A stretch of 64,000 bases of DNA. It comes from Patescibacteria group bacterium. GTDB taxonomy: Bacteria > Patescibacteriota > Microgenomatia > UBA1400 > PJMF01. Positions 2,771-35,583 of the stretch are shown here, piece by piece (position 1 is the first letter of the stretch; each line of letters begins with the position of its first letter). The notes below the pieces were generated by a model. It worked only from the letters and a program-made list of their open reading frames with translations, did no database searches and was not told where the DNA came from. Location: NCBI GenBank assembly GCA_016861205.1, contig BOKX01000001.1, forward strand, positions 264,539 through 328,538. Reading direction: 5' to 3'. The translations under genes and the position numbers were made by a program.

Positions 2771-3238
2771 GTGTCTGGCATAATACAGTCAAGAATTGAA
2801 CAAATTCACCAGGGCAAGAATCCCTATTTTGTTGCTGAACTGATGACTGGCTATGTTGTATTGGGCGACCATCAGAGATTTGTAGGATACACCTTGTTTT
2901 TATCAAAATCTGAAGCCACAGAACTCCATGAACTGCCGACGCACCAACGGTTACTGTTCTTGGAAGAAATGGCATTGGTGGCGGAGTGCGTCTGGCAAGC
3001 TTTTTCACCCAATAAGCTGAACTATGAATTGTTGGGAAATGGTGACCCACACATGCATTGGCATATTTTTCCAAGGCGGGATGACGACGGGGTGACTGGT
3101 CCGGTGTGGTGGTTGCCCTACACGGAAATGAAAGTGACTGTCTCAGACGAAGAAATGAGAGCGCTAAAGCAAAAATTGAAACGAGCCATACTAAACAACT
3201 CGGCTCTGAAACCCCATATAGTCAAAGTTTGTGAGTAA
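2771..3238 (+). CDS. HIT-family (histidine triad) hydrolase/nucleotidyltransferase-like protein
   Basis: GTG start preceded by AAAGGAGG RBS (2759-2766). Histidine triad motif HMHWHIFPRR near the C-terminus. Confidence 0.75.
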   Translation: MSGIIQSRIEQIHQGKNPYFVAELMTGYVVLGDHQRFVGYTLFLSKSEATELHELPTHQRLLFLEEMALVAECVWQAFSPNKLNYELLGNGDPHMHWHIFPRRDDDGVTGPVWWLPYTEMKVTVSDEEMRALKQKLKRAILNNSALKPHIVKVCE

Positions 3239-13514: not shown

Positions 13515-13517
13515 AAA

Positions 13518-14723: not shown

Positions 14724-14821
14724 CTATTGTTAGTCTAGTATTCGGGGATTCTATCGCAAAGAATTTCCGTCACGATTTGCTTACTTGAGCCTATACCCCA
14801 AACCTTGCTACACTGGCAGAT

Positions 14822-16837: not shown

Positions 16838-16846
16838 AAAGGCGAA

Positions 16847-22000: not shown

Positions 22001-24652
22001 TTAACGGTACAAATTCTGTAAGTCACCTTGGTAGATAGCGGTAGCAAACCAAGCCCAGTTTTGCAGGTAGTACTCGTCTCCTTCATACCAATACGCAGCT
22101 CCGTCTTGAGTAGTTGTGTATGTTGGTAAAAACTTCTCTTTGAGAATCACCTGAGCTCGTTCTGGATCAGTAATAAGAAAGACTGGTAAGTTCATAATGT
22201 AGGCATAGCGTTGCGACTTCGTTTGGGGCACCGCGTCATGCGAGTACACGTCGACCACACCACCCTGGGTGTGTTGCCAAACTAAAAAGTCAAGACTTTT
22301 GAGATAGTCAGCCGCCCGATAATCTTGATTCCATTGATAATCAAGATAGATTTTCCAAGGAATCCGAAAGGCATTGTACCCATAGTTTGAGTCGTCAGGT
22401 TGCGGTTTGGCAGACGCCACAAATGAACCCAAGTTCTTCTCGTATCTGCACCACTCGGGTGGCAAAGAACTGGAGTAATTTTTATCGAGCAAGGTTGCTG
22501 AGCAGCTTTTCAAAACTGCGTAGCTTGAATCCAAGACACTTGACCAGTCGTGATCTTGATCGACAACAGCAAAAATTCGATAAGCGTAAGGTGCTAGATA
22601 TGATGGGTTGAGTGTAACGTAGTCTGCCGAGTCAGCCCAGTTGCCCGCTGTTACAAAGGAAAACCGTTGATCACTGTACACGTTGTACTCCCAGATATCT
22701 TTAATTATTTGCTGGGCGTCTTCATAGTAGCGAGGCTCATTCCACCGCTTAGCCGCAAACAGCAAGGCCAACGCAATATCTTGGTCGGCGTCTGGAGCAT
22801 TGCCTTCGTCAATCAGGCGTTGAGATTTGTGTAAGTACTTCCAACCAAATAAATGCGACTTCTTTAACCGCATGTGTTTGTCTGTCCAAGCATAAACCTG
22901 ATCAAATGTTTCTCGATCATTCATCCAAACAGCTCTCAAAAGTGCGTAGGATTGGGCTTCTGAGATAACTGAATCGGATTGCTCAGGTGGTTGAATGTAC
23001 CCCTTCGGATTGAGGAACTTACGTTTGTATGTTTCCCACGAGGGCTGCAGATCTATGCGTTGCTGCTGATACATAACGACCCAATCACCATTGGGCATAG
23101 TTTGTTTCTGAAGTTGGAAATTGGCTGGGAACGTGGGATCGAGACTAAACTCAGCCACACGTTGACTGTTTCTGAGTGCTTGTTTAATCAGCGATTCCTG
23201 TCCTCGGTACGAGATTTGTCGTTGGACTTCAGCCGTAATCATCACGTAGTCAACGTTTCGAAAATCATTGCCAAGTTTTTTCTCGGTGATGTCTGGGTCA
23301 AGCTCAACTTTCCAGAACCAGTCTGCATTCTGAAATGTAGACTGGCCATCTGCCTGCCGATAGGTTAAGTCGAGATAGGCATAAAAATCGATAGCCATGT
23401 GTGAATCACTGGGCACATTTTTTTTGATCCAGTCAACTGCTTGCAACTGAGCAGTGGTCTCATCTTTGGTTAGGTACGTTGTAACTAACGGTCGATAGTA
23501 GTAACTCATGACCGCTACGGCAGCCAGCGCCACCGGCACCCCCAAAATCCAGTGCAGTTTTTGCAGCAACTGGCTGAAGTGACTAACGAGCACGCCAATA
23601 CACAAGCTTAAAAAGGGAATCAAGGCGATCACATAAAAATTGATGACCAGTTTGCCACTGGCTAAGAACAAGACTTGGGGCCAGGTCAGCATGAGTACCT
23701 GCCGACTTTTTTTGCTTTTAATGGCCAACATCACATGGGCAAAAAAGGCACTGTACCCGGCCACAATAAGCCACCAATCCTCTTTCATCCAGTAGGTCAA
23801 GTTGACACGAAAATCGCTAAACTGATGCCAGACTGGAAGGCCACTGCCTCTACCCGCTTGCATTGCCAACGTTCCCAGCAAGCTGACATGTGGATGTGGT
23901 GGGGAAAATGGAGAGCCTGGAGGAAAGAGCTCACCTTTCAACAACGCATACAGCGGATAGAACGAAATGACAGCTCCAGCCAGACAGAGCCACTTGATGA
24001 TGGCTATGGTTCGATGCTTTGGATGTGCATGGCTAGCAACCAACCAGACCATAGTGGGCAGGAAAAAAACCGCGTTCTCTTTGGTCAAACAAGCCAGGCC
24101 AAAAGTAATTGCGCTTACAAAGACACGGCGCAGACGAGATTTGGCCGTCATTACCAACCAAAAACTGAGCAGCACCCAAAAAACCATCAAGTTGTCTAGC
24201 AACAGCCGGCGTTGAAAGTACACGGCTAATGGTGAAACTGAAAACAAAGTCACCGCTACAAAGGCAGCTATTTTCGATCGGCTAATCTTCTTGGTGACCG
24301 CATAGAGAAGCAGTACATTCAAAAGGTGAATGAGTAGCATGAAAACGCGCCCAGAGTTAAGAGCAAAGCCAAAGGTAAACAGACCACCCGTCAAGGCTAC
24401 CCACGCGGCTGTGAAAATCCAACCAAACGGCGCATGGTCATACCAATATGTGTAGGGTGCCAATTTCCCTTGGGTTAAAAAACTCCAAGCCTGCGCGAGG
24501 TAGGTACCTTCATCGTTCTCAAAAAATGGGAAGTGGAACATGTTCCAACCGTGAAAAAACGCAGCTGCTCCTAAGAGGGCCAAGATAAATCCCAGCTCGC
24601 CATGCTGCCATACCCAGGTTTGTAGCTTTTTAAGCAGCTGCATACTGTCCAT
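22001..24652 (-). CDS. Multi-TM GT-C-fold glycosyltransferase (GT39/PMT_2/ArnT-like), N-terminal ~500 aa, fused to a C-terminal glycoside hydrolase family 8-like domain
   Basis: FENDEGTY (DE motif in first extracytoplasmic loop) and about 11 predicted TM helices. C-terminal domain has ISEAQSYALLRAV, DADQDIALALLFAAKRW and NPSYLAPYAY, resembling GH8 (BcsZ-type) signatures. The track ORF starts at 24847, but the likely start is MDSMQ at 24652 (or 24643), 20 nt inside the end of the upstream GT2 gene. Confidence 0.65.
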   Translation of the reverse strand: MDSMQLLKKLQTWVWQHGELGFILALLGAAAFFHGWNMFHFPFFENDEGTYLAQAWSFLTQGKLAPYTYWYDHAPFGWIFTAAWVALTGGLFTFGFALNSGRVFMLLIHLLNVLLLYAVTKKISRSKIAAFVAVTLFSVSPLAVYFQRRLLLDNLMVFWVLLSFWLVMTAKSRLRRVFVSAITFGLACLTKENAVFFLPTMVWLVASHAHPKHRTIAIIKWLCLAGAVISFYPLYALLKGELFPPGSPFSPPHPHVSLLGTLAMQAGRGSGLPVWHQFSDFRVNLTYWMKEDWWLIVAGYSAFFAHVMLAIKSKKSRQVLMLTWPQVLFLASGKLVINFYVIALIPFLSLCIGVLVSHFSQLLQKLHWILGVPVALAAVAVMSYYYRPLVTTYLTKDETTAQLQAVDWIKKNVPSDSHMAIDFYAYLDLTYRQADGQSTFQNADWFWKVELDPDITEKKLGNDFRNVDYVMITAEVQRQISYRGQESLIKQALRNSQRVAEFSLDPTFPANFQLQKQTMPNGDWVVMYQQQRIDLQPSWETYKRKFLNPKGYIQPPEQSDSVISEAQSYALLRAVWMNDRETFDQVYAWTDKHMRLKKSHLFGWKYLHKSQRLIDEGNAPDADQDIALALLFAAKRWNEPRYYEDAQQIIKDIWEYNVYSDQRFSFVTAGNWADSADYVTLNPSYLAPYAYRIFAVVDQDHDWSSVLDSSYAVLKSCSATLLDKNYSSSLPPEWCRYEKNLGSFVASAKPQPDDSNYGYNAFRIPWKIYLDYQWNQDYRAADYLKSLDFLVWQHTQGGVVDVYSHDAVPQTKSQRYAYIMNLPVFLITDPERAQVILKEKFLPTYTTTQDGAAYWYEGDEYYLQNWAWFATAIYQGDLQNLYR

Positions 24653-26024
24653 TTGTGGTAGGTGTACGGTGGAGATTGAGATGGGTGGTTTTTTCCCAGT
24701 TGGTTTTCTGTTGGGTGTGGCGCAAGACAGCGCGTAGAGCACTAAATGCGAGCACCATTTGATATGGTACAAAAGTAAGGACGATGGTGAGGATAACGAG
24801 AACAGACATTCTTTGGTGAAAGTCCTTCGAAAACTCGGTATAGCCAAGTATCTGCACCACCAGTTGGAGTACTAATAAGTAAAATGGATACATGACTAGC
24901 AAAGTTGCAATCACGGGTAAATCAATAAAAAACGTAGCTAAAGAAATCATCACTAACACAAAGTTCAATGCGTTCAACTGTGCCAATACTAAAAAGTATA
25001 AGGCAAACAGTCGCTTTTTGGGATTGTGAAAGGCTTGCCACTTCCGCTCAAGCAAGATTTGCAAGAAACCCTGATTCCAACGCGTGCGTTGTTTGACAAG
25101 ACTTGCGAGTGTGCCAGGACTCTCCTCCCGCGTCACTAAATCCGGGTCATACACGATTTGGATCGGGTAGTTTTGACTCGACAGTCGCAATCCCATCTCC
25201 GCATCTTCAGTAAGACAGGTATTCCAACCACCGAGTTTTGTTAGCACCTGCTTTTTAATAAACACCGTGTTCCCACCGAGAGGAACAACGCCCATTCGGC
25301 TAAATAAGTGCAGGGCAGATTTGTACCAGAAGTAGTACTCCAGCACATTCAGGGCTGAAAACCAGGTCGTTCGTAAGTTTGTAAGTTGCACGCCACCTTG
25401 CACTGCGCTGGGCTGCTTTGTTAAAAAGACTGTGTTAACCACTTGGAGTATCGCTGTTTGTGGCTCGTCTTCAGCGTCAAAGACACCGATCACGTCATAC
25501 TTGGCTGCTTTTAAGCCAAAGTTTAAAGCACTTGGCTTGTTTGATTCCAAGCTCGTGAAACTCAAGACTTTAAAATTTTTGACCCTAAGCTGGGCAATTG
25601 CGGCTCTAGCACTACGAAGTGTCTCTTTATCATCAGATTTGCACACCACTAACACCTCCCAAAGGTGGGCAGGATACTCAATGTTAGCGATAGATGCCAG
25701 GGTAGTACCAATGACTTCGCTCTCAAATCGAGCCGGAATTATGATCGAAAACGTGGTTTGAGGTGGTAAAGCAATCTTTGGCGGAGCATCTGCAGCAAGC
25801 TTGTTGGGATCTTCCCAACCATACAGCATCCAGAACAAGGTAAAAATACCTTGAAAACTGAGCGCAAACGCCGTTATGAGCAGACCTATTTTTATCGGAA
25901 GCAGCCAGTAATCCCCTTGCAGGATCACGCTTACTAAGGCTGTACAAAACAAGGTGACTAACACTGCTGTAATAGTCACCAAAAAGATAGTTATCTTAGT
26001 TTGTTTCCTGGGCAGGACTTTCAA
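24630..26024 (-). CDS. Processive family-2 glycosyltransferase (cellulose/chitin/PNAG-synthase-like)
   Basis: Two N-terminal TM helices. DAEDEP (DxD-like), TED motif (LTEDAEMGLRL) and QxxRW motif (QRTRWNQG). Further C-terminal TM helices. Confidence 0.85.
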   Translation of the reverse strand: MKVLPRKQTKITIFLVTITAVLVTLFCTALVSVILQGDYWLLPIKIGLLITAFALSFQGIFTLFWMLYGWEDPNKLAADAPPKIALPPQTTFSIIIPARFESEVIGTTLASIANIEYPAHLWEVLVVCKSDDKETLRSARAAIAQLRVKNFKVLSFTSLESNKPSALNFGLKAAKYDVIGVFDAEDEPQTAILQVVNTVFLTKQPSAVQGGVQLTNLRTTWFSALNVLEYYFWYKSALHLFSRMGVVPLGGNTVFIKKQVLTKLGGWNTCLTEDAEMGLRLSSQNYPIQIVYDPDLVTREESPGTLASLVKQRTRWNQGFLQILLERKWQAFHNPKKRLFALYFLVLAQLNALNFVLVMISLATFFIDLPVIATLLVMYPFYLLVLQLVVQILGYTEFSKDFHQRMSVLVILTIVLTFVPYQMVLAFSALRAVLRHTQQKTNWEKTTHLNLHRTPTTNGQYAAA

Positions 26025-26255: not shown

Positions 26256-28568
26256 ATGCCCAAACCAGAAAAAGCTCCACAACCTGTTAATCGTAGTGAT
26301 GCAATTGAAAGTTGGTTGCAAAGATGTGAAGCAGGTAAGCCTGGATTCATAGAAATGCATCAGTACACGGAAGAAACGTTTCGTGCGATCAGTCCGGATC
26401 TTTTGCAACGTCTGTACGCAATGATTGAGCGGCTGATTGCTTATGAGCACTTCACTTGGCAGTTACCAACGGGTTGGCTTGAGTGGGCCAACCAGCGCGC
26501 TCAGTTACCCACCGAATCTGGCTTCAAAGCAGCAAGCGAGGTGCTCCTTTGGGCGGCAGAAATGGGGACGATGTGCGGTGTATATCTGGCGGCTATGCGC
26601 CAACTAGAAACTATTTTTCGTGATGCATCTGAACTGACACAAAAGCAGTCCCGTAGACTGCGATCATCCGAAGAGATACTTGCTTTGCAGATTAGATATG
26701 CAGAAGTGATTCTGTATGAGAGGCAACCCTGGTCACTACTCCGGTTGACTCCTCACTGGATCGGTTTATTTTTACCTGAGGTAGCTGATCAAGGTTTCGA
26801 TATTAAAGGCTATGATAAGTGTTTTTCGGTCGGGCAGATTTTAAGAGCTCATGCCAGTCGTATTCAAGATGGCAAGAGACGCTTGAATGTAAATGAGCTC
26901 AAAGAGCTCTATGGATTGGTACTCAGCATGCTAAAGGTCGAACAGTCGAGGCTGGGCACGATTTATCCAAACTACAATTTTACGGCCGGCTTGTTAAGTA
27001 CGGCCAGCGGCAGCTATGCCTACCCATTAATTGAAAAAGATCGTTCATGGATGGCACATGTCAAAAATGCAGATCAGCGTGAGTACCTACTAGCAGGTGG
27101 TCAGTTAATGAAGTTGATCAGACTGTTTCATACAGATTGGTACCTATCACTTCTCAATGAAGACGCTCGATTTCACACTGAGGCAGTAGCCATCTTTGAC
27201 TATGTCTACGCTGCCAATGAAGAGAGCGCAAAAATGCTCGTCGAAGAGGCAACAACTGCTCTTGCTCTTTATCCAGAGAAATTTGGGTTCAAAAAAACCA
27301 GCGATGCTGTAGTTTCAATTGCCCAGTGGTTTCTGAACACCCATGTGAATGACCTGGATAGAGAGTCTGCAGACGCTGAAGTACTGTACAAGTCTGACAA
27401 GCTTAATTCGCTGCAGGAACAGGTGATTTCACTTTTGATAAGTTATCACTTAAGCCTATACAACGAGCGTTTGTTGATCGGAGCTACAGGTATCACTGCG
27501 CTCAACTACATTGAGGAAGGTGTTACGCTGCCCGACGCTCAAAAATCACTGGAGTCCATTGCCAGTGCCTGTCAGCAAATACACTTGTTACACCAAAAAC
27601 AACGTAAAGCTCAAGGTACATATCAGCGCAGCGGGCATGTCAACATAGAGGATGGTCGTGATCAAGATGCAATGATGCATCATTTAGTGCCGAATCAGGC
27701 GGATATCGAGTTAACATATCAAGTCAGACAGAACTATGTGATGGCGAAAGTTTCACTTTCTGATTATGAAATTAATAGGCAAAGTATTCCTGATGCTGAT
27801 AACGCGTTATCAATTGAAGAGCTGGAGGCACAAAAGTTAATTGTGCAGTTTGCGGTCGACTTATCAACTTCTCCGGCTGAGTTTGTTTTTGAAGTGTATG
27901 ATCCTGAAGATGTCTTGCCTGAAAGTCAGGCTATTTGGGCAGCTCTACTAGCAGCTCAGCTGGAAGGATGGCTGGCTGAGTTGAAGACAGAGATCGCAGA
28001 AAACCCCATTACCGATGAGGTTGTTTTGCTTGATAAAGGTACACTTGCAAAAAAAACTGGGCAGATTCCGACTAAACCTGCTCCTGCTACTGAAAAGCGC
28101 AAAGCGTCAGGCAATGGTGCGAATGGCACAGGCTCAAGTAACGGCAACGAAGCAGATGCCTTACCAGCATTTATTGAAGCTGGTCGCCGGTTGATGTACC
28201 CGACCAGCATGATGCTGGCACCGGCTTTGGAAACTGAGGTAACAAAAAGTCGTGGTAAAGGTAGCCGAGCAGATGAGCTAGCGATTTTGTCGGATTTCGT
28301 GACTGAGTTCAATGCGAATCCTGCCAAGTTTCACTCTGAAAAAGTTACTAAAGCTGTTCGAAGTGCCAAAGCGGTTGGCCCAAATGGTGAGTTGATCTGG
28401 CGCATAAAACGAGGTGATTACCGGATTTTTGCCGTCTCACTCAATCGGTCGCAAGGCATCATCGTAGAGGTTGATCGCAAAAGTGATGAAACGTACGAGG
28501 ACATGTCTGGGCTCAAAGACAAAGCACACAAAGCTGTGACAGCACTACAAGTAACGGCGCAAAACTAA
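26256..28568 (+). CDS. Large hypothetical protein (770 aa) with a C-terminal RelE/ParE-like toxin-fold domain
   Basis: The last ~95 aa (ANPAKFHSEKVTKAVRSAKAVGPNGELIWRIKRGDYRIFAVSLNRSQGIIVEVDRKSDETYED) fit the RelE/ParE pattern. That pattern is the R-x-GDYRI-[IF]-[YA] core followed by I-x-I-x-[RH]-[RK]-x-D. No P-loop and no other recognisable domain in the first ~670 aa. A Gly/Asn/Ser-rich linker precedes the C-terminal domain. Confidence 0.6.
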   Translation: MPKPEKAPQPVNRSDAIESWLQRCEAGKPGFIEMHQYTEETFRAISPDLLQRLYAMIERLIAYEHFTWQLPTGWLEWANQRAQLPTESGFKAASEVLLWAAEMGTMCGVYLAAMRQLETIFRDASELTQKQSRRLRSSEEILALQIRYAEVILYERQPWSLLRLTPHWIGLFLPEVADQGFDIKGYDKCFSVGQILRAHASRIQDGKRRLNVNELKELYGLVLSMLKVEQSRLGTIYPNYNFTAGLLSTASGSYAYPLIEKDRSWMAHVKNADQREYLLAGGQLMKLIRLFHTDWYLSLLNEDARFHTEAVAIFDYVYAANEESAKMLVEEATTALALYPEKFGFKKTSDAVVSIAQWFLNTHVNDLDRESADAEVLYKSDKLNSLQEQVISLLISYHLSLYNERLLIGATGITALNYIEEGVTLPDAQKSLESIASACQQIHLLHQKQRKAQGTYQRSGHVNIEDGRDQDAMMHHLVPNQADIELTYQVRQNYVMAKVSLSDYEINRQSIPDADNALSIEELEAQKLIVQFAVDLSTSPAEFVFEVYDPEDVLPESQAIWAALLAAQLEGWLAELKTEIAENPITDEVVLLDKGTLAKKTGQIPTKPAPATEKRKASGNGANGTGSSNGNEADALPAFIEAGRRLMYPTSMMLAPALETEVTKSRGKGSRADELAILSDFVTEFNANPAKFHSEKVTKAVRSAKAVGPNGELIWRIKRGDYRIFAVSLNRSQGIIVEVDRKSDETYEDMSGLKDKAHKAVTALQVTAQN

Positions 28569-29200
28569 GACGTTTTGTAACTAAAGGCCACTTGGATGGC
28601 CTTGTACAGGAGCTGAAAGATGTGGACACCATTGGGCATCCGAAGTGTCCCGAGGAATGTTTTTACTTCGGCGTGGTAGCCTTCATTTCGGTAAAACTCA
28701 CGATCCAAGTCCCCTACCACCATCACCGTAGCTTCTAGTGCGATCAGTAACTGAATGTTTTCCCAGGTTGGAGTTTTGTACCTTTCTTCATCCACATATA
28801 CAATTAAACCGGATACATCAGCTAGACTAACTCCCGGATGGATGTCATCCTGGCTTGGTGGCCGACCGTGAGTAAACTGCAGAACTGCGGAATGGCGAGA
28901 AAAATGAGTACATAATTTATCAAAAGTGTCAGTTCTGACTTCTTCCGAATCGGCTGTTTGAGACAGTCGGACGTAGTTCTCAATCATGTCAGATAGCTCG
29001 ATGATGACCTTTTTGGCACGCTCAACGCTCAAGGTACTATCTTGCGGGTCAAGCTTAAGAGCTTGTTCTGAGGTAATAACCGCCTGACCAATATATCGTG
29101 GGTCAAAAGGATTTTCGGGCTGATCGTAAAAAGAGTTTGGTAGGGGTGGCAAAGGCCGTCGAGGATGAAATGGTTTGTTTGCTTTATCGGGGTTGTTCAT
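28565..29200 (-). CDS. Hypothetical protein
   Basis: Start MNNPDK at 29200 preceded by an AGGAG RBS. The track ORF extends to 29227. Pro-rich N-terminus, several His. No known motif. Confidence 0.45.
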   Translation of the reverse strand: MNNPDKANKPFHPRRPLPPLPNSFYDQPENPFDPRYIGQAVITSEQALKLDPQDSTLSVERAKKVIIELSDMIENYVRLSQTADSEEVRTDTFDKLCTHFSRHSAVLQFTHGRPPSQDDIHPGVSLADVSGLIVYVDEERYKTPTWENIQLLIALEATVMVVGDLDREFYRNEGYHAEVKTFLGTLRMPNGVHIFQLLYKAIQVAFSYKTS

Positions 29201-29366
29201 ACAGTAACTCCTGCTACTAGCTAGCACGATCCTACTGTGTTTGAGTCAAGTTTGCTACTGGCTAGTTTAAGCCACGTAGCGCTACCTTAGGTATGTGAAA
29301 ATTTGAGTTCTAATCCGAGTCGGAAGGATCTCATTCAAAAAAAACTATGTTGCGATAATAGTTAAT

Positions 29367-30557
29367 TTAACTAGATATGAGCAGTCCCTCGATAATCCCA
29401 AGCAATTTTCTCTGTACATCAACTATATGAGCTCTGGCCTCTGCATTGAGCTCACTTTGACGATCTTTAATTGTGTGAAATTGTCCGTCTGTAGCGCCAA
29501 TTTGATTGGAAGCTACGAATGTGCGGGGTGCAACTCTGAGGGTGCTTTTTTGCTCTGTAAAATCATGCGTGTAACCAAGTGAACCAAAAATACCTTTGTG
29601 TGTTAGGTTCCATGTTGGTTCATTTGCGGAACGAGCTGGCCGAGCATTTTGGGCTATTTGAAGTAACAAAGCTTGTGATGCCGGGGTAATTTCGCGATGT
29701 TTTTGCAAATATTTAGATACGTTTCTAACCCGTTCTTCCTGATCTAAAGGCAAGTAGCGATTGTAATTATCCAACTCAAAATTAGTCATACAGCTGGCAA
29801 TTTCTTGCCAACTCATTTTCCAAAAGCTCATGATCTCACTGAGTAGTTGCTGGTCATCTCTGTCAATAGTTGGGTTCAGGTCAGTTTGCTTGAGAATAAT
29901 TGAAGAGGTTGTTTTATCAAGCCCCACATGTGGGTAGACGCCCTTTAATATATCAAAAGAAATCAGAATGGTTGGGTCCCACAGCACATGTTTGAAGCTT
30001 GGCTGGCGTTGTAACTCATGTGACAGATAACCAGTGCTCTGCATTGATTCTGGTATGCCATAAACGTGCCAGTGCATCTGTGGATAGGTGGTGGCGTACG
30101 GCTGATGATGATCAGCTTCACCTGGGCCAATATGCTGGATAACATAGAGCTTTTTAAGCGGATCTTGTTGTTCAGCTGCTGCACATATATTGGCTGAGAT
30201 AGCTGCATTAATCGCATCAAACATTAGTGTGCGAGCATCATATGGTAACTCATCCAAACTATGCACTAAACAATTGGAACCTTTTGGGAAACAGTTCAAC
30301 AGTAAATCATACGCGGAATTAACTGCATTTTTTAAGTAAAAAAAGAGGCCATACTGCTCTGTTCCAGGCAAAAGTAAGGCTGTTCCATTCTCAACCATGT
30401 CCCTTAAACCAAGTTCTAGTATGTCTTCATAGGAAGCATTCCGCAACATATCTAGGGTGGCGTGTTCAAAGTTCTTAATTAAACCTGTGTGGTGGAGACG
30501 TGGTACGGCAACCTCCCGTCGATGACTAGCTAGAACTTCAAATGATCCAAAACTCAT
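29367..30557 (-). CDS. Hypothetical protein (His-rich; possible HIT-like/GalT-like MHWH motif)
   Basis: Likely start MSFGSF at 30557 (the track ORF from 30605 would overlap the ChbG gene). Contains DHHQPY...QMHWHVYG. Function unknown. Confidence 0.45.
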   Translation of the reverse strand: MSFGSFEVLASHRREVAVPRLHHTGLIKNFEHATLDMLRNASYEDILELGLRDMVENGTALLLPGTEQYGLFFYLKNAVNSAYDLLLNCFPKGSNCLVHSLDELPYDARTLMFDAINAAISANICAAAEQQDPLKKLYVIQHIGPGEADHHQPYATTYPQMHWHVYGIPESMQSTGYLSHELQRQPSFKHVLWDPTILISFDILKGVYPHVGLDKTTSSIILKQTDLNPTIDRDDQQLLSEIMSFWKMSWQEIASCMTNFELDNYNRYLPLDQEERVRNVSKYLQKHREITPASQALLLQIAQNARPARSANEPTWNLTHKGIFGSLGYTHDFTEQKSTLRVAPRTFVASNQIGATDGQFHTIKDRQSELNAEARAHIVDVQRKLLGIIEGLLISS

Positions 30558-30595
30558 GGAGCATATCCTACAAAATCTTCTCAATAAGACAAGGG

Positions 30596-31408
30596 TCAAA
30601 TACACAATAGATGTGTATACGTGGTCAGGTGGATATTATTAGACCTAACGAGCTCTAGGATAAGATTAGAAGTTAGAATTGCTAGCTCTGTCTCGCGTGC
30701 TTCACGATAACTACTTAGCAAAGCTAAAGAAGCATCATTGTAACCGGGATGCACCATAAGTTCAGTGACAGCCTCGGTTAATGACGTCAAAATTTCCTGA
30801 AGTACTTCAAGGCTTGCCTTACCAGCAAAAAATTTAGTTAGTAAGGCGTCTGTCGTGCGAACGAAAAGTTCCTCTGAGTGATGCTGTTTTTGAAAGGTCT
30901 GGCTTGTTGTGGACATTGTAGGTGTGTAGACACTGGCACTTCGAATTGGTAAATCATGTTCACTAGCCAGGTACTGCATAACCTGAAAAAGGGTCGGATG
31001 TTTATATGAAATATGATGATGTGAGTCCAAATGATCGGGATATACATTGCAGGCAATCATGGCTGCAATTTGGGCTGACCACTCATCGTAGACTTGGTTA
31101 GGGTCTAGAAATTCAGCCTTACTTCTGATTTCAGCTAGACTGTGAAAATGACCATTGGTGTTAACAAGAGATGGAACCTTGTCAGGCGATAGCAGAGGTT
31201 GTCCAGTTGTGAGATTAAGATGGGTACCTATAGCTAGTTTAGGCGTTTGAGCTTTGGCTAGAGTAAGATCACTTTCAACACCCGGTACATTCATCATGGC
31301 TGTTGTTGATGTGACAATACCTTGCCTGTGAGCAACTCGAATTCCTTCAGAAACTTTTCTAGTTAATCCATAGTCATCGGCATTTACGATTAAGCATTTT
31401 TCTGGCAT
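30596..31408 (-). CDS. ChbG/YdjC-family carbohydrate deacetylase
   Basis: N-terminal NADDYGLT motif and the HLDSHHH metal-binding motif of YdjC/ChbG. Confidence 0.8.
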   Translation of the reverse strand: MPEKCLIVNADDYGLTRKVSEGIRVAHRQGIVTSTTAMMNVPGVESDLTLAKAQTPKLAIGTHLNLTTGQPLLSPDKVPSLVNTNGHFHSLAEIRSKAEFLDPNQVYDEWSAQIAAMIACNVYPDHLDSHHHISYKHPTLFQVMQYLASEHDLPIRSASVYTPTMSTTSQTFQKQHHSEELFVRTTDALLTKFFAGKASLEVLQEILTSLTEAVTELMVHPGYNDASLALLSSYREARETELAILTSNLILELVRSNNIHLTTYTHLLCI

Positions 31409-31419
31409 AAGTGAAACGT

Positions 31420-32163
31420 TTATATTTTGAACACCGTCAAAATTGGCAGGTGATCAGAGAATGGAATTGAAAGAATTTGTGTAGATACAACCTCTAAATC
31501 TCGAGTGGCTAAAATGTAATCGAGCCGCCAATCCAAAGTTTCTGCATTAAAACCGTGATAGCTAAAAGGTTTTGTGGTCCACGTTTTCTGATCAAATGAT
31601 GGGCCAGCGTTTTGATAGGTGCGAAGCAATCTCTCAACAAGGCTTGAGTGTTCTGTCAGGTTAAAGTCTCCGGTCACTATGGTTTTCTGTGTACATGGAG
31701 TGAGCGTTTCTAAGAAAAGGTTGCTCTCACGATTTTTTTCTGATGTTTCTCGAAAACCATCAGAAAAGGAGAGGTGGGTTGTGACAACCGTTACCTCATG
31801 GTCGGGTAGCTGAACATCGCACAAACAGGCTATTCGCCTCTCAAGTCCTTGTGTGTTAGCTGTTTTGGGTTCTGCTTCTTGGATGACCTGGTATCTGAGG
31901 TTTTTTAAAGGAAATTTGCTCAAAATGCAGTTGCCTTGAGTGCGAGGTGGCACTTGATCTGTCCAAGTATGTGCGACAGCGTGGTGCACGTGATAGTTCA
32001 GATTTGTGGCCAAAAACTGGGGCACATCTTTGCCTATATTGGGAAAGTCCTGTGTAACTTCCTGAAGACAAATGATATCTGGCTGATACTTTTCAAGTAC
32101 TTGAAGGATATTCTGTGGTTGCTCATTAACCCAAACATTCCACTGCAAAACACTAAACTGCAT
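31420..32163 (-). CDS. Endonuclease/exonuclease/phosphatase (EEP) family protein
   Basis: N-terminal LQWNVWV...IICLQEV and C-terminal SDHLPI motifs typical of the EEP superfamily. Confidence 0.78.
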   Translation of the reverse strand: MQFSVLQWNVWVNEQPQNILQVLEKYQPDIICLQEVTQDFPNIGKDVPQFLATNLNYHVHHAVAHTWTDQVPPRTQGNCILSKFPLKNLRYQVIQEAEPKTANTQGLERRIACLCDVQLPDHEVTVVTTHLSFSDGFRETSEKNRESNLFLETLTPCTQKTIVTGDFNLTEHSSLVERLLRTYQNAGPSFDQKTWTTKPFSYHGFNAETLDWRLDYILATRDLEVVSTQILSIPFSDHLPILTVFKI

Positions 32164-32176
32164 ATTGTTTATTATA

Positions 32177-33124
32177 CTAGACGATAGTTGAGGAATAATA
32201 CTGCTCAGTTGCGACTCCAGCCAAGACGAGCCCTGTTTCTAAGACGTCATCTAACTGCATCGAGCGTTGTGTCCACCCAACTGAGACTCGAATTGCATTG
32301 ATAAAAAATAGTTCTTTTGCCAACGATGTAGAACCACTAACATTTTTTACCTTTTCATCCAGTTCTAAGATTAATGGTCTCAGGCAAGCTTCGGCCGGCG
32401 CAAAGTTTGGATCGAGCTGATACTCAACATTAAACGTATCGCCACAACTAAAGGTTCCTTGATACCGGTACTCGAATAAATAGAGGGCGCCAGCAAGATT
32501 ATTTAAGGCAGATGATGCCATGTTGTACCCAGTGTAGTTTCCAGGATCAATAGCGTAGTAGTTGTCCTCTTCGCACAAAACATTTCCAGGATGTTCGTCG
32601 CCATGACATAGAACCATGTGTTTTTCTATCTTGTTCTCAAGGGCAATCTGGCATTGTGTTAGTGTCTCATGCAAACATGGGTAAGTAACCCCATTCACAA
32701 TAGTAGGCATATGTGCAAAATTCATGATTTTTTCATTGTGTCGAAGTCGATACAGTGTGTTTAGGGTTTCTAGACGCCAATTCCTAGAAACAACTGTTTC
32801 ATCCATTGATTTGGTAGTTGTATGCCACATAGCATACATGTCGTTAAGAAAGCGTTGCAGGGAATCTTTTGCAAGGTGTGGTTTGTCTTTTAATATGGTG
32901 TTAACTGCTTGGGCTTCTACGCCACGAACAACCAAAAGATGTCCCTCTGAGGTATTGGCTAATCTAGCCTTAGGCATACGTAAATATGGGGCAAGAAGAT
33001 GATAGCCACTAATTTCACGGGCTGGTCTACGTATGAAATGACCTTCGGTTCCCTTCTTTATGTAAAACTGATAAGGACCGCGATCATCGCGATACAGAAA
33101 ATTCGTCAGTTGTTCTCTTGACAT
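32177..33124 (-). CDS. Aminoglycoside-phosphotransferase-like (APH/CotS/choline-kinase-fold) small-molecule kinase
   Basis: Catalytic loop HGDEHPGNVL and downstream YAIDPG (Brenner motif HxDxxxxN ... D). Confidence 0.6.
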   Translation of the reverse strand: MSREQLTNFLYRDDRGPYQFYIKKGTEGHFIRRPAREISGYHLLAPYLRMPKARLANTSEGHLLVVRGVEAQAVNTILKDKPHLAKDSLQRFLNDMYAMWHTTTKSMDETVVSRNWRLETLNTLYRLRHNEKIMNFAHMPTIVNGVTYPCLHETLTQCQIALENKIEKHMVLCHGDEHPGNVLCEEDNYYAIDPGNYTGYNMASSALNNLAGALYLFEYRYQGTFSCGDTFNVEYQLDPNFAPAEACLRPLILELDEKVKNVSGSTSLAKELFFINAIRVSVGWTQRSMQLDDVLETGLVLAGVATEQYYSSTIV

Positions 33125-33137
33125 ACAAAAGTTCGCC

Positions 33138-34358
33138 CTAAAGCTTAGGTGGTTCTGTTTTAGTCGCTAAGATCCAAATTTTATCCAAAAGATCGCGATA
33201 CGTTTCCATAGATAGGTTACGAGCCAGCTCAACGGTGAACTCTTGGTCTTTATCTTTTATTAACTCAATCGCGCCTTTGATTGCAAGCAAGGTTGAATCA
33301 TCATCCCCGACTACCCGAGCTAGCTGATCGAGATTTAATTCCCCTTCAAAGGCTGGCAAAATAATAGTTCTAAACATAAATCGGCTGGCTCTTTCTTCAC
33401 GATGCCTAAGAAGATCTTGGGCATCTAAGTCTGCCACTATTGATTCTAGTAACTCAATGTCACTTATTCGGCAATCCACCCAACCTTGCATAGATGAAAA
33501 CTTGTTTTGGGGTGCTTTTTGAGACAAAGCAAATATTTCGCGTCGTGCGCTTGGAATTGTTTGTGTCGGAATGAAGGCAACAGAACCACCCAGTGCCCTG
33601 ACCGCATGCCCAAAGCGCAGATCATTTCCTTTGATCTGATTACCAGCAGCATCTCTAGGTTGCTGGCTACCGCCTATGGCAGCGTATGGTTCAACCTCAA
33701 TAGCAAAGTTTGCTCCGCATGTGTGAATGAATGCTACCCCAGTGTCACTTAGATAGTAGGCAACTTCTCCCAAATAACGAAAAAAATTGCTGACTCCTTT
33801 TGCCTGTTCGATAATGTCATCAAGCTCATATGGGTAATGGTATTTGCCTCCCAGTGCTTCGGCACGAGTTTCTGTAGCTACTGAAACAATAGACGCGGCC
33901 CAATCAGGTGGAACCAGAGTATCCGCATCTGTTAAAGCCATGTATCTAGGTGTGGTAATGTTTCCACGCTTAAGATATTGAGCTACAGTTTCATCCATGC
34001 CACGCTTTCGGGCATGAACAGGTCCTTTTTGAGTGGCTTGTAGAACTGTTACAGGAAAAGGAATATCTTTGCCAGCAGAAATGGCTGCAGCTGTAGTTTT
34101 ATCTGTACTGTTGTTATCAACAACAACAATTTCGATCGGAACGGTACTTTTGCCAAGCTGTTCAAGGCACAAGGGGATGAAGTCTTGCTCATTAAAAGCG
34201 GGAACAACAACAGTTAAAGCTGTGTCTGGATCGCAGAGTGCTACACCTGGTGTTGTTTCAACACCATAATCTCGACAGTATCTTTCCAGAGTTTGTTTTC
34301 TTTTTTCATCAGGTTCTTCGGCTTTCCTTAATTGGTCAGGACTTTTGGGCATAGTCAC
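33138..34358 (-). CDS. Family-2 glycosyltransferase (GT-A), soluble
   Basis: VVVPAFNEQDFI...VVVDNNSTDKT N-terminal Rossmann-like GT2 pattern. DAD motif. Confidence 0.78.
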   Translation of the reverse strand: MTMPKSPDQLRKAEEPDEKRKQTLERYCRDYGVETTPGVALCDPDTALTVVVPAFNEQDFIPLCLEQLGKSTVPIEIVVVDNNSTDKTTAAAISAGKDIPFPVTVLQATQKGPVHARKRGMDETVAQYLKRGNITTPRYMALTDADTLVPPDWAASIVSVATETRAEALGGKYHYPYELDDIIEQAKGVSNFFRYLGEVAYYLSDTGVAFIHTCGANFAIEVEPYAAIGGSQQPRDAAGNQIKGNDLRFGHAVRALGGSVAFIPTQTIPSARREIFALSQKAPQNKFSSMQGWVDCRISDIELLESIVADLDAQDLLRHREERASRFMFRTIILPAFEGELNLDQLARVVGDDDSTLLAIKGAIELIKDKDQEFTVELARNLSMETYRDLLDKIWILATKTEPPKL

Positions 34359-34412
34359 GTACTATATCAATAATGATCGGAAACGCAAGAGACATGGCAG
34401 CTACACGATAGT

Positions 34413-35438
34413 TTATTGATTGCTTAACTCAGTTAAGATTTCCTTGAACACCATGGCCAATGCGGGGACATCATGGCGAATCATGCTCCGTTTGAGAATG
34501 TCACCTGGTTGTCGGGGAACTAACTGATCTGAAACAATGGGTCTCCTCATGACAGGCGGCATGTTTGGCATGCTTGTTTCATCCAAATCATCGAGGACTG
34601 GAATTGCCTGCTCTGCCTGATATAAAGACAGCACATCTTCCGGATAGACAGTTTCACTGTTAATTAATATTCTGTTGACTCGTTCCAGGGGGAAAAAACG
34701 ACTAAGATCCAGAACATAATCAGATGCACGGTAGTTATACGCATCACCATACTTTGTCATGAGATTAATGATAAATAAGATAAATGCCTTTGAGTCAATC
34801 AAGGCTTCCACTATGCCATCAACAATGAGATTTGTTAAGGTATTGGTGTACAAATCACCAGGCCCAAGTACGATAAGGTCTGAAGCTTGAATAGCAGCCA
34901 TAGCTTCAGCATCAATACTGACAGTTGGTTCAGTTCGAATTTTGGTGATTCTTAACTTTCCATCGTGCTTGGGTTCATCAATTGCGTGTTCACCATGAAC
35001 TTCACTACCATCCTCATACGTGGCAACCAGCCGGGCATCTTCATAGGTGATGGGCAGGATGTGACCCTGTACAGATAATAACTCGGCAGTCTTTTTTATC
35101 GCCTGTCGAGGTGAACCACAAATATCAGAAGCAGCAGCTAAGAATAAATTGCCAAAGGTCATGCCACTTAAACCCTGACCACGGTGGTAGCGATAGCTAA
35201 ACAGCTCCTTAAGCAGGCTTTCTTGCGAGGACAAAGCTACCATGGCTTGTCGAATACCTGATGTTGGTGGTAAACCAAAATCATCGCGCATTACTTGATT
35301 GGAACCACCATCATCAAATGTGTTGAGTACTGCTGAAATATCAAGACCTGGAATCTCAGTTAGAGCACGCAGCACTGTGTATGTACCTGTCCCACCACCC
35401 AAGGCTGTTACATGTACTGGGTTTTCTTGGTTTAACAT
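34413..35438 (-). CDS. YvcK/CofD-family protein (UPF0052; gluconeogenesis-factor / 2-phospho-L-lactate-transferase-like)
   Basis: N-terminal VTALGGGTGTYTVLRAL...NTFDDGGS signature of the CofD/YvcK family. Confidence 0.85.
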   Translation of the reverse strand: MLNQENPVHVTALGGGTGTYTVLRALTEIPGLDISAVLNTFDDGGSNQVMRDDFGLPPTSGIRQAMVALSSQESLLKELFSYRYHRGQGLSGMTFGNLFLAAASDICGSPRQAIKKTAELLSVQGHILPITYEDARLVATYEDGSEVHGEHAIDEPKHDGKLRITKIRTEPTVSIDAEAMAAIQASDLIVLGPGDLYTNTLTNLIVDGIVEALIDSKAFILFIINLMTKYGDAYNYRASDYVLDLSRFFPLERVNRILINSETVYPEDVLSLYQAEQAIPVLDDLDETSMPNMPPVMRRPIVSDQLVPRQPGDILKRSMIRHDVPALAMVFKEILTELSNQ

Positions 35439-35508
35439 GGGGGTTAATCTACAGTTCTTGGCAGAAAATGTCCAGGAATAAAACGTGTTTTTGTTGTGAA
35501 TGATAGGC

Positions 35509-35583
35509 TGGTGACCCCACGGGGAATCGAACCCCGGTTACCGGGATGAAAACCCGATGTCCTAACCGCTAGACGATGGGGCC
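35509..35583 (-). tRNA. tRNA-Glu (anticodon UUC), CCA encoded
   Basis: Cloverleaf read by eye: acceptor GGCCCCA/TGGGGTC, anticodon stem TCGGG/CCCGG with loop TTTTCAT, T-arm CGGGGTTCGATTCCCCG, 3' ACCA. Confidence 0.88.

Follow-up and report, generated by a model that had tools for sequence, protein, structure and literature searches.

A cluster of seven genes on the minus strand of the 64,000-nucleotide stretch of DNA analysed here (the window) raises the question of whether its members form one functional unit and, if so, what that unit makes. Seven closely packed genes had been predicted at 28565-35438, and all seven open reading frames were found with unchanged coordinates and short gaps between them, while an independent gene caller also recovered them from this organism on two metagenome contigs. 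In the direction of transcription, the features of the locus are the following.

35509-35583, minus strand: tRNA-Glu(UUC) (ARAGORN; Rfam tRNA, 61.4 bits)
35446-35474, minus strand: promoter-like site TGGACA-17-TAGATT between tRNA-Glu and gene 1 (consensus match only)
34413-35438, minus strand: gene 1, 341 aa, CofD fold, YvcK/GlmR subfamily (PF01933, 230 bits; TIGR01826)
33138-34352, minus strand: gene 2, 404 aa, soluble GT2 (GT-A) glycosyltransferase (PF00535, 64 bits, E=1.5e-17)
32177-33124, minus strand: gene 3, 315 aa, protein-kinase-like small-molecule kinase of the APH/choline-kinase/fructosamine-kinase type (weak Pfam matches, motifs)
31420-32163, minus strand: gene 4, 247 aa, cytosolic EEP-family phosphoesterase (PF03372, 96 bits)
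30596-31408, minus strand: gene 5, 270 aa, YdjC/ChbG-type carbohydrate de-N-acetylase (PF04794, 200 bits)
29367-30557, minus strand: gene 6, 396 aa, HIT superfamily, unannotated family, 38 nt after gene 5
29201-29366, minus strand: gene 6-gene 7 spacer, 166 nt (T-run following the gene 6 stop codon; AGGAG ahead of gene 7)
28565-29200, minus strand: gene 7, 211 aa, no family match (ATG at 29200)

With the called ATG starts, the intergenic gaps from gene 1 to gene 7 are 60, 13, 13, 11, 38 and 166 nt. Two overlaps had been described, which appear only when gene 6 is given its longest-ORF GTG start (30605) or when the tail of gene 7 is counted, as this overlaps a convergent 770-aa gene by 4 nt. 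The extra 140 nt placed ahead of gene 7 was an underestimate, the distance to its ATG being the 166 nt listed above. Consensus scanning revealed no minus-strand terminator-like site inside the cluster, and the spacer yielded neither a terminator-like match in such a scan nor an Rfam family. The promoter-like site is weak evidence of a start upstream of gene 1, with 21 such sites observed in the region against 14.9 ± 3.4 in shuffles. Genes 1-6 differ in GC content (0.417-0.438) from the window's other genes (0.481 ± 0.016), with gene 6, at 0.423, resembling genes 1-5. The low-GC island that they form lies directly downstream of tRNA-Glu, its upstream boundary, which lies 70 nt before gene 1. 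Gene 7, at 0.461, falls outside the island and has no match in Pfam, NCBIfam, PADLOC, PHROGs or plasmids. Its membership is doubtful because it has no relative in related loci, its GC is near background and it stands behind the 166-nt gap; it is probably a separate neighbour, outside the unit.

Linkage of the remaining genes can be judged from related loci, of which four are full, namely the window, L005/L008, a Gottesmanbacteria locus (L003/L009) and a Woesebacteria locus (L010/L016), with a 1.2-kb fragment (L017) in addition, a sample that leaves the linkage statistics thin. GT2, kinase and YdjC occur together in all four full loci; in the three outside the window these proteins share 30-47% identity with their window counterparts and the flanks are different. 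The GT2 gene is followed directly by the kinase gene in three of the four (overlapping by 8 nt in L003), and the kinase gene directly by that for EEP in the window, L005 and L017. CofD is present in two of the three other full loci, as an orthologue with 52% identity in L005 and a relative with 30% in L010. EEP is present in one (L005) and on the fragment, and both loci without it (L003 and L010) carry a sugar-phosphate nucleotidyltransferase. In L010, YdjC also shows 30% identity to the window, compared with 45-47% for GT2 and kinase, so that these families stay linked there although the CofD and YdjC copies are far more divergent. Genes 6 and 7 were found in none of the other cassette loci. 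The proposed seven-gene unit therefore stands as a GT2, kinase and YdjC core, to which CofD and EEP are usually added, but not with respect to genes 6 and 7.

This comparison also bears on chance adjacency, whereby a housekeeping yvcK would simply lie beside unrelated genes. YvcK is a widespread housekeeping gene, and short gaps alone mean little in densely packed genomes of ~1 Mb. However, synteny of three to five core genes is preserved at 30-52% protein identity in differing flanks, and the canonical yvcJ-glmR-whiA context (PMC10128056) is absent at the window locus. Random adjacency is contradicted for the core by its linkage in all three other full loci, and as an account of the cluster chance is scarcely credible. 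Genes 1-5 very probably constitute a conserved, functionally linked cassette.

Judging from the sequences, the most likely product of this cassette is an intracellular sugar conjugate of glucosamine type. None of the seven cluster proteins has a predicted membrane segment, which is consistent with a soluble, cytosolic sugar-modifying pathway. All five family assignments of the original prediction for genes 1-5 (CofD/YvcK, GT2, APH-like kinase, EEP and YdjC) were confirmed by domain searches and motifs. Gene 1 reaches 242.6 bits against TIGR01826 (YvcK type; cutoff 196) and merely 27.7 against 257 for the F420 CofD equivalog. Its residues 9-285 align with B. halodurans YvcK (2O2Z/2HZB, E=1e-48), and the alignment with 2O2Z shows that the DDGGS and GPGxLYT..NL motifs are retained, including the Asn of the latter. 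The proposed role for gene 1 is binding or formation of UDP-GlcNAc. Purified GlmR/YvcK forms UDP-GlcNAc from GlcNAc-1-P and UTP (PMC10128056), with the in vivo uridyltransferase activity of GlmR being disputed (bioRxiv 10.64898/2026.06.23.733835). Two of the three residues that were mutated together in an inactive Listeria GlmR are not kept in the cassette's other CofD proteins, which have DS in place of DD and S or H in place of N. Each of the four full loci nevertheless encodes one or more candidate suppliers of UDP-sugar: CofD/YvcK in the window, L005 and L010, and an NTP_transferase in L003 and L010, that of L010 being a GlmU-like protein with NTP_transferase and hexapeptide parts.

Each of the other three full loci has an orthologue of gene 2 at 45-47% identity, and the PA(Y/F)NE, VVVDNxS, GPVxARKRGMDE and TD(A/S)DT (DxD) motifs are invariant. 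Gene 2 carries a helical C-terminal extension of ~120 aa. Its best solved relatives (5tze/5tz8, GalT1, DPMS, ArnC and GpgS) match the N-terminal 70 aa only; as this likeness is limited to the nucleotide-binding N-terminus, donor and acceptor are not fixed by homology. Weak matches of the GT2 family to DPMS, ArnC, TagF and chondroitin or heparosan synthases are consistent with envelope decoration, in which the GT2, working at the inner membrane face, would place HexNAc on polyprenyl phosphate or on a polymer of the wall or of an exopolysaccharide. Deacetylation would then precede export, as in ArnC/ArnD or PNAG-type systems, and the product would be used by a PgaC/BcsA-like membrane GT2 (24630-26024) and a PMT_2-GH8 fusion (22001-24847), which lie 2.5 kb from the cassette. 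The CE4 deacetylase of L010, of NodB/ArnD fold, would fit such a route. Nevertheless, the GT2, like the other cassette proteins, is devoid of a membrane segment (maximum 19-residue Kyte-Doolittle hydropathy of 1.17 in gene 2), the conserved cassettes all lack a flippase or polyprenyl-phosphate enzyme, and the exopolysaccharide genes are outside the low-GC island and not beside the cassette in L003, L005 or L010. Envelope decoration is accordingly unlikely.

For gene 3, Pfam matches remain below threshold (18.5 bits for APH, whose cutoff is 23.2; E=1.4e-3 for Choline_kinase), although the catalytic motifs HGDxxxxN (MVLCHGDEHxxN) and IDPGN (IDPGNYTGYN) are invariant in its family. Weak PDB matches to fructosamine-3-kinase, spectinomycin phosphotransferase, maltokinase and 2pyw, with a best E of 0.02 or worse, cover the catalytic loop only, and the substrate is not assignable by sequence. 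The family is rare, with 7 clusters among 5.8 billion sequences and only 3 loci per genome or metagenome scan.

Gene 4 conserves all canonical EEP motifs (WN, LQE, GN, THL, GDFN, DYI and SDH), and the solved proteins closest to it are uncharacterised EEPs, TDP2, ExoIII and Nocturnin. Orthologues of gene 5 keep NADDYG, GxHLNLT, HLDSHHH and ELMxHPG. Against the HpnK model gene 5 scores 122 (cutoff 232.6), and against the ChbG equivalog NF002559 it scores 201.1 bits, just below the cutoff of 227. The latter value would fit catabolism or recycling of chito-oligosaccharides or wall amino sugars, with ChbG-like deacetylation followed by phosphorylation towards glycolysis and with YvcK as a UDP-GlcNAc-sensing regulator, a role in keeping with the description of YvcK/GlmR as a metabolic checkpoint protein in Firmicutes (PMC6171935). 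Yet the tightest conserved partner is the GT2, a biosynthetic enzyme type, the nucleotidyltransferases of two cassettes suggest anabolism, and the cassettes are without a transporter, glycoside hydrolase, GlcN-6-P deaminase or GlcNAc-6-P deacetylase. Such a breakdown route is decidedly unlikely.

For biosynthesis of a glucosamine-type conjugate, family chemistry and conserved linkage suggest an order of steps that is plausible but tentative. The YvcK/GlmR-type CofD of gene 1 would supply or hold a UDP-N-acetylhexosamine donor, being replaced or supplemented in other lineages by a classical sugar-1-phosphate nucleotidyltransferase. The APH-like kinase would phosphorylate an acceptor, onto which the soluble GT2 would move HexNAc; the EEP phosphoesterase would then take off the phosphate, and YdjC would de-N-acetylate the sugar, freeing the amine to give a GlcN-glycoside (GlcN-X). 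An N-acetyl sugar is proposed because a YdjC deacetylase is found in all four full loci and L010 additionally has the CE4 deacetylase. The phosphatase logic is supported by L010, where EEP is missing and a Cof/S6PP-type HAD phosphatase abuts the cassette, but phosphate removal would not be universal, since no EEP or other phosphatase can be recognised in the Gottesmanbacteria locus. Successive action of the glycosyltransferase HpnI and the YdjC-type HpnK has been proven to lead from GlcNAc-R to GlcN-R (PMC12583986). Both HpnI/HpnK and MshA/MshA2/MshB share the logic of the proposed route, although their enzymes are non-orthologous. As originally noted, the cassette matches no described pathway in NCBIfam, PADLOC, PHROGs or literature searches.

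Gene 6, apparently a lineage-specific addition in the window, codes for a two-domain HIT-superfamily enzyme with its nucleophile histidine kept, which most likely acts on a nucleotide or NDP-sugar. It has no Pfam or NCBIfam match, and exhaustive HMMER searching recovered a family of about 50 clusters (52 representatives) with invariant Q141-H142, H162-x-H164, G325 and P344. An HMHWH string had been said to be common to gene 6 and the HIT gene at 2771. Gene 6 in fact has QMHWH, but the remark is essentially right, as profile-profile comparison (hhalign) with the window HIT protein (2771-3238) places QMHWH on HMHWH, with a probability of 86.6%, E=4.5e-6 and motifs in register. In the AF2 model (pLDDT 88.6, pTM 0.89), all Foldseek matches with probability >0.4 are to the HIT superfamily (GALT, DcpS, HIT). 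Sequence and model together indicate that gene 6 founds a new enzyme family of this superfamily, with H-x-H on a predicted HIT-like fold, and the chemistry is most likely nucleotidyl transfer or hydrolysis. Five representatives are fused to a C-terminal kinase-like domain with no detectable relation to gene 3, and relatives in L021/L022 overlap an MGS-type soluble GT. Elsewhere, they adjoin PRPP synthetase/PRTase_3, pur genes, NUDIX or LigT.

CPR bacteria rely heavily on salvage, and the cassette may also be read as salvaging a sugar before decorating a product with it. Gene 3 would then be an anomeric N-acetylhexosamine 1-kinase like AmgK or NahK, the GT2 would transfer, YdjC would deacetylate and EEP would have an unrelated or trimming role, while the sugar-1-phosphate would be turned into UDP-HexNAc by one of three enzymes: gene 1 in the role of a GlmR-type uridyltransferase, gene 6 in that of a GalT-like HIT transferase or, in other lineages, the NTP_transferase. 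Maltokinase and 2pyw, both kinases acting on C1 of a sugar, are among the weak profile matches of the kinase family, and gene 6 is HIT/GalT-like with relatives fused to kinase-like domains. In L010 the kinase is followed directly by the GlmU-like nucleotidyltransferase and in L003 the NTP_transferase is first in the cassette, arrangements for which AmgK-MurU, an adjacent pair of anomeric kinase and uridylyltransferase, provides a precedent (PMC5371407). However, gene 3 has no detected specific similarity to AmgK or NahK, the other cassettes are without gene 6, and EEP is left unexplained, despite following the kinase in three loci. A route to an essential precursor would also be expected to be widespread, but the kinase family is extremely rare. 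Salvage is thus possible, though not probable.

The low-GC island beside tRNA-Glu and the rare, patchy distribution are also compatible with an island for processing nucleic-acid ends or for conflict (defence), gained beside a tRNA gene, in which EEP would be a nuclease and the HIT protein would be aprataxin/DcpS-like, with nucleotides being modified by the kinase and GT. TDP2 and ExoIII among the EEP profile matches, the HIT fold of gene 6 and the PRTase_3, NUDIX and LigT genes near its relatives would agree with this. Defence is nonetheless very improbable: no protein has a PADLOC match, no relative of the kinase was found on viral contigs, there is neither an integrase nor an att-like repeat of tRNA-Glu at the island's other end, CofD/YvcK and YdjC are enzymes of sugar nucleotides and sugars, and the GC of the cassette matches that of the host in the other genomes. 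Genes 1-5 apparently form a rare cassette that has undergone horizontal transfer and is kept together in several ultra-small (CPR-type) bacteria; in other genomes, on lower-GC CPR contigs, its GC content is host-like.

The cluster consists of seven open reading frames on the minus strand of the window at 28565-35438, and the same seven genes, with products of 341, 404, 315, 247, 270, 396 and 211 amino acids for genes 1 to 7, were recovered by an independent gene caller on two contigs of this organism from metagenome data. In transcription order, and headed by the tRNA gene that precedes them, the features are:

35509-35583, minus strand: tRNA-Glu gene, 70 nt upstream of the cluster and on the same strand
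34413-35438, minus strand: gene 1, CofD/YvcK family
33138-34352, minus strand: gene 2, GT2
32177-33124, minus strand: gene 3, APH-like kinase
31420-32163, minus strand: gene 4, EEP
30596-31408, minus strand: gene 5, YdjC
29367-30557, minus strand: gene 6, HIT-like
28565-29200, minus strand: gene 7

With ATG starts the gaps between successive genes are 60, 13, 13, 11, 38 and 166 nt. The tight packing described in the original prediction therefore stands, at 11-60 nt between genes 1 to 6 and 166 nt before gene 7, but the two overlaps reported there arise when each gene is given the start of its longest ORF. The seven-gene cluster contains no terminator-like site on the minus strand. Membrane segments are predicted in none of the seven proteins and the products of genes 1 to 7 are cytosolic.

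Related loci were located through the family of the kinase, gene 3, which is very rare, forming only seven clusters at 90% identity among 5.8 billion sequences. Scanned with the kinase profile, genomes yielded only three loci, the window's own genome not being among those returned, and metagenomes likewise only three, while the viral contigs of IMG/VR held no kinase relatives. Linkage of the genes is seen at every readable kinase locus, with the following arrangements:

Window: CofD-GT2-kinase-EEP-YdjC, then genes 6 and 7
L005/L008 (7.6-kb MAG contig): CofD-GT2-kinase-EEP-YdjC, then opposite-strand genes
L003/L009 (Gottesmanbacteria): NTP_transferase-YdjC-GT2-kinase, the GT2 and kinase genes overlapping by 8 nt
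L010/L016 (Woesebacteria): YdjC-CofD-GT2-CE4 deacetylase-kinase-(NTP_transferase + hexapeptide), abutted by a Cof/S6PP-type HAD phosphatase
L017 (1.2-kb fragment): kinase-EEP

The invariant core is composed of GT2, kinase and YdjC, present in all four full loci, to which CofD is added in three of the four, EEP in three of five loci (the fragment included) and a nucleotidyltransferase in two of four. GT2 and kinase are 45-47% identical to the window proteins in all three other full loci. Identity to gene 1 is 52% for the CofD protein of L005 and 30% for that of L010, and identity to gene 5 is 43-44% for YdjC of L005 and L003 and 30% in L010; the same families thus stay linked in L010 despite two much more divergent copies. 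Flanking genes are unrelated from locus to locus. The seven genes had originally been proposed to form one pathway; of these, GT2, kinase and YdjC stay together throughout and CofD does so in three of four loci, while none of the related cassette loci has an equivalent of gene 6 or gene 7.

The related loci belong to Microgenomates-type bacteria of the candidate phyla radiation (CPR), whose genomes are of ca. 1 Mb and in which very little specialised metabolism is known. The contig with the best-conserved cassette copy (L008, CAYNMS010000044.1, 7.6 kb) was placed by binning in a MAG that carries the label 'uncultured Pseudomonadales'; it has a GC content of 39% and its cassette relatives lie in CPR genomes, and it may be mis-binned.

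Base composition sets most of the cluster apart from its surroundings. Genes 1 to 6 have a GC content of 0.417-0.438 and a GC3 of 0.32-0.41, against a mean of 0.481 (sd 0.016) for the remaining genes of the window, with gene 7 at 0.461, while in other genomes the GC content of the cassette equals that of the host (38-44%). Together with the position of the tRNA-Glu gene, this suggests that genes 1 to 6 were gained from a lower-GC donor of CPR type; neither an att-type repeat of the tRNA nor an integrase was found for the island. A five-gene cassette kept across Microgenomates-type lineages and apparently gained horizontally here points to a product under selection. This is a genuine cassette, rare and maintained by selection, and the chemistry inferred for it is conventional.

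Family assignments for genes 1 to 5 largely agree with the original prediction, CofD, GT2, EEP and YdjC scoring well above the cutoffs of Pfam and NCBIfam and the kinase being called from sub-threshold matches and invariant motifs. Gene 1 scores 230.1 bits against PF01933 (cutoff 30) and 242.6 bits against the YvcK-type model TIGR01826 (cutoff 196), with a match to the YvcK structure 2O2Z at E=1e-48 that leaves its C-terminal 55 residues unaligned. Its score against the F420 CofD equivalog TIGR01819 is 27.7 bits, below the cutoff of 257.45, and no F420 genes occur in the cassette, which confirms the earlier exclusion of F420 biosynthesis. At positions equivalent to D40, D41 and N198 of Listeria GlmR, the residues mutated in an inactive protein (PMC10128056), gene 1 carries D42-D43 (DDGGS) and, within LYTNTLTNL, the Asn. 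In the CofD proteins of the L005 and L010 cassettes D-D is replaced by D-S and the Asn by S or H, so that two of the three residues are not kept in them.

Gene 2 is a predicted GT2 (GT-A) glycosyltransferase, with 64.4 bits against PF00535 (cutoff 23.3) and a DxD motif, TDADT, that is invariant as TD(A/S)DT. The C-terminal membrane helices or membrane association typical of polyprenyl-phosphate GT2s (DPMS, GtrB, ArnC) are not seen in this gene, the maximum 19-residue hydropathy being 1.17, and the similarity to them is confined to the N-terminal 60-80 residues. Gene 3 falls below the Pfam gathering cutoffs for both APH (18.5 bits, cutoff 23.2) and Choline_kinase (18.5 bits, cutoff 29), and its PDB matches, to fructosamine-3-kinase and relatives, are weak. 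The catalytic loop CHGDEHPGN and the metal-binding IDPGN are, however, invariant in seven family members and align on fructosamine-3-kinase 3f7w, and the kinase call draws on these invariant motifs (HGDEHxxN, IDPGN) along with the sub-threshold and weak matches. Gene 3 (window 32177-33124, minus strand) also weakly matches the central part of phrog_4098 (E=2.5e-5).

Gene 4 is assigned from its sequence to the EEP phosphoesterase family (96.3 bits against PF03372, cutoff 24.5), its catalytic Asn, Glu, Asp and His motifs being invariant in three orthologues. Gene 5 is a predicted YdjC-family protein (200.5 bits against PF04794, cutoff 29.7) with conserved NADDYG, HLNLT and HLDSHHH; a closer identification as the ChbG equivalog was rejected, with 201.1 bits against NF002559 (cutoff 227) and no chb or PTS genes nearby. 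The linkage of the cassette genes is conserved and the catalytic motifs of their enzymes are intact.

The constant pairing of GT2 with YdjC matches the HpnI/HpnK pair of the hopanoid system, a proven route from GlcNAc-R to GlcN-R in which HpnI, a GT2, puts GlcNAc on a hydroxyl acceptor and the YdjC-family HpnK deacetylates it to a glucosamine conjugate (PMC12583986). Gene 2 matches HpnB (E=5.7e-10) and gene 5 matches HpnK (E=2.7e-35), but both stay far below the equivalog cutoffs (38.8 vs 379 and 122 vs 232.6), and the cassette lacks shc, hpnH and hpnJ, adds kinase, EEP and CofD-like genes, and resides in CPR-type genomes. A candidate donor supplier is found in each full cassette, either a YvcK/GlmR-type CofD, a classical nucleotidyltransferase or both. 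In vitro, UDP-GlcNAc is formed by GlmR from Listeria, B. subtilis and S. aureus (PMC10128056), although the activity of GlmR in vivo is contested (bioRxiv 10.64898/2026.06.23.733835). In three loci the kinase has GT2 on one side and EEP on the other, and in L010 a HAD sugar-phosphate-type phosphatase stands in the place of EEP; no phosphatase can be recognised in the cassette of L003.

Taken together, the GT2/YdjC pair, the donor suppliers, the position of the kinase and the phosphatases favour a step order of kinase, GT2, EEP and YdjC. Judging from family chemistry, the gene 3 kinase would make a phospho-acceptor to which the gene 2 GT2 would add a HexNAc, after which EEP (gene 4) would take off the phosphate and YdjC (gene 5) the acetyl group. 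Similarity of gene 2 to solved enzymes does not fix donor or acceptor. In the main rival the kinase would act on the anomeric position of HexNAc and pass its product to a nucleotidyltransferase, after the example of AmgK-MurU, where an APH-fold sugar kinase and a nucleotidyltransferase yield a UDP-amino-sugar (PMC5371407). This would account for the gene order of L010 but gives EEP no role; the nucleotidyltransferase, within the cassette in two of the four full loci, adjoins the kinase in one. The cassette does resemble AmgK-MurU and NahK-GalT (LNB/GNB) in pairing an APH-like kinase with an NTP_transferase, GlmR-like or HIT-like protein, yet gene 3 showed no specific sequence similarity to AmgK or NahK, neither of which is among the PDB matches of its sequence or profile, and these salvage routes are without the GT2 and deacetylase that the cassette always has.

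The favoured order, from kinase to YdjC, can be likened, in its chemical logic alone, to the mycothiol and bacillithiol pathways (MshA-MshA2-MshB; BshA-BshB) and to GpgS-GpgP, in which a UDP-sugar and a (phospho)acceptor give, through dephosphorylation and de-N-acetylation, a cytosolic GlcN-X. The enzymes are non-orthologous, GpgS being a weak match of gene 2. Where these known systems have GT4 enzymes (MshA/BshA), LmbE-type deacetylases and HAD-type phosphatases, the cassette has GT2, YdjC and EEP, lacks the cysteine ligase and includes a dedicated kinase, in line with the early dismissal of both thiols. That the original prediction could not place the genes in a known pathway is likewise upheld, since no curated family or system in NCBIfam, PADLOC or PHROGs covers the gene combination and searches of the literature brought up no account of it. 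All enzyme families of the cassette are known and their chemical logic has precedents.

A tentative and rather doubtful reading is that the cassette gives CPR-type bacteria a cytosolic glucosamine-glycoside metabolite not known before, with all enzymes (CofD-like protein, GT2, APH-like kinase, EEP and YdjC) non-orthologous and with an extension here by a HIT-family nucleotidyl enzyme. Within this reading, the product could be a functional counterpart of the GlcN-inositol (mycothiol) or GlcN-malate (bacillithiol) cores, of a compatible solute of the glycoside kind, or even of a pseudo-disaccharide resembling aminoglycosides, whose phosphorylated state would be maintained by a dedicated kinase/phosphatase pair. 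Were it a soluble glucosamine glycoside, it would represent a new class of small metabolite for CPR bacteria and a second, non-orthologous way to such cores. The cassette also provides YvcK/GlmR-type CofD with a concrete enzymatic context outside the yvcJ-glmR(yvcK)-whiA operon of Firmicutes and Actinobacteria. Gene 1 falls in the same YvcK/GlmR subfamily but has no RapZ/YvcJ or WhiA neighbour, being flanked instead by tRNA-Glu and GT2, and this context bears on the dispute as to whether GlmR is an enzyme or a regulator only.

Word-indexed homologue searches with the single sequence of gene 6 and with a 33-sequence profile returned only gene 6 itself, and the sole search to find the family was an exhaustive HMMER search, which gave 52 representatives, mostly of 350-440 aa. 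Sequences of the family diverge too far for their alignments to serve as the start of a genome scan; its invariants are Q141-H142, H162-x-H164, G325 and P344. With the family alignment AlphaFold2 reached a pLDDT of 88.6 and a pTM of 0.89 (from the single sequence the pLDDT was an unusable 38.8), the model of the ca. 390-aa protein showing two alpha/beta halves, helical inserts, and the H-x-H on a strand after a long helix.

The HIT-like motif noted at the outset is in register with that of the small HIT protein of the window (2771-3238), to which gene 6 aligns by hhalign with a probability of 86.6% (E=4.5e-6); contrary to the original prediction the string is not the same in both, QMHWH of gene 6 falling exactly on HMHWH. 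That HIT gene (window 2771-3238, plus strand; Pfam HIT E=1.3e-5) directly follows a class-I aminoacyl-tRNA synthetase gene (1745-2731). Members of the HIT superfamily (Hint/Fhit, the GalT branch, DcpS) carry an H-phi-H-phi-H-phi-phi triad. Gene 6 shares the H-phi-H on a beta-strand after a long helix, but its family conserves only the second and third His of the triad, the first being Q in the window, and some relatives are kinase-fused. Among the two His retained is the middle one of the triad, the nucleotidyl-accepting residue in Hint, Fhit and GalT, and the gene 6 motif reads xMHWH vs HPH-G-Q (HPHGQ) of the GalT type.

Foldseek against the PDB gave no strong match for the gene 6 model, human GALT, DcpS and small HIT proteins appearing at probabilities of 0.44-0.80 (E >0.06), but all matches with a probability above 0.4 belong to the HIT superfamily. 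Gene 6 has no Pfam HIT or GalT match, its profile retrieved nothing from PDB sequences, and hhalign detected no internal HIT duplication. Alignments to approximate HINT1, FHIT and GalT sequences were weak (E about 0.04), with the motif in register, and serve as a lead only; that to the approximate E. coli GalT gave E=0.039.

Five family representatives are fusions of ca. 690 aa with a C-terminal kinase-like domain, recognised as Pfam APH in P0063 and by a D-x-x-P-x-N ... IDY motif in the other fusions. As hhalign detected no relation between the fused domains and the gene 3 family, the fusion does not tie gene 6 to gene 3 specifically. Relatives of gene 6 have the following neighbours:

P0026 (fusion): between PRTase_3 and PRPP synthetase
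P0063 (fusion): beside purM, purB, purC, purK and purE
P0034 (fusion): divergent from a NUDIX gene
P0024: overlaps an MGS-type soluble GT
P0025, P0023: among genes without assigned function, or after a tRNA synthetase

Motif, profile, Foldseek, fusion and neighbour evidence combined place gene 6, by sequence and structural model, as the putative representative of a novel family within the HIT superfamily, with ties to the metabolism of nucleotides and NDP-sugars; gene 6 was added to the cassette in this lineage only. The family is unannotated, with about 50 sequence clusters, and new within a known superfamily. Fusion to kinases and proximity to nucleotide-metabolism genes render it tractable for function discovery. 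On contig L014 (1496-5655) a 699-aa fusion of this family with a kinase-like domain lies between genes for PRTase_3 (a ComF-like phosphoribosyltransferase) and PRPP synthetase, a setting that suggests a role of the family in making or salvaging a nucleotide-like compound. On L021 (1240-3733) and L022 (76-2569) a family gene overlaps a 396-aa soluble GT of the mannosylglycerate-synthase type (PF21969) by 20 nt, a second case of the HIT-like family adjoining a soluble GT-A enzyme.

Gene 7 has no matches on plasmids. Convergent with it is a 770-aa ORF (window 26256-28568, plus strand), the tails overlapping by 4 nt, for which Pfam, NCBIfam, PADLOC and PHROGs gave no match; a RelE/ParE-like character of its last ca. 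90 residues, seen by eye, was not borne out by a PDB sequence search, which gave spurious matches only. Beyond it lie a membrane GT2 resembling processive synthases of the PgaC/BcsA type (window 24630-26024, minus strand) and then a 948-aa protein in which a PMT_2 glycosyltransferase domain is fused to a GH8 hydrolase domain; the two genes together (22001-26024, minus strand) look like an exopolysaccharide synthase module. This module is 2.5 kb from the cassette and is not linked to it in other genomes. Elsewhere in the window, a glucan-metabolism run (12279-17773, plus strand) comprises GT4/GT5 glycogen-synthase-like, GH57 and GH15 genes and a BadF/BcrA-type ATPase, from a family that includes GlcNAc kinases, and a split transketolase (9597-11440, minus strand) is encoded as N- and C-terminal halves by two overlapping genes.
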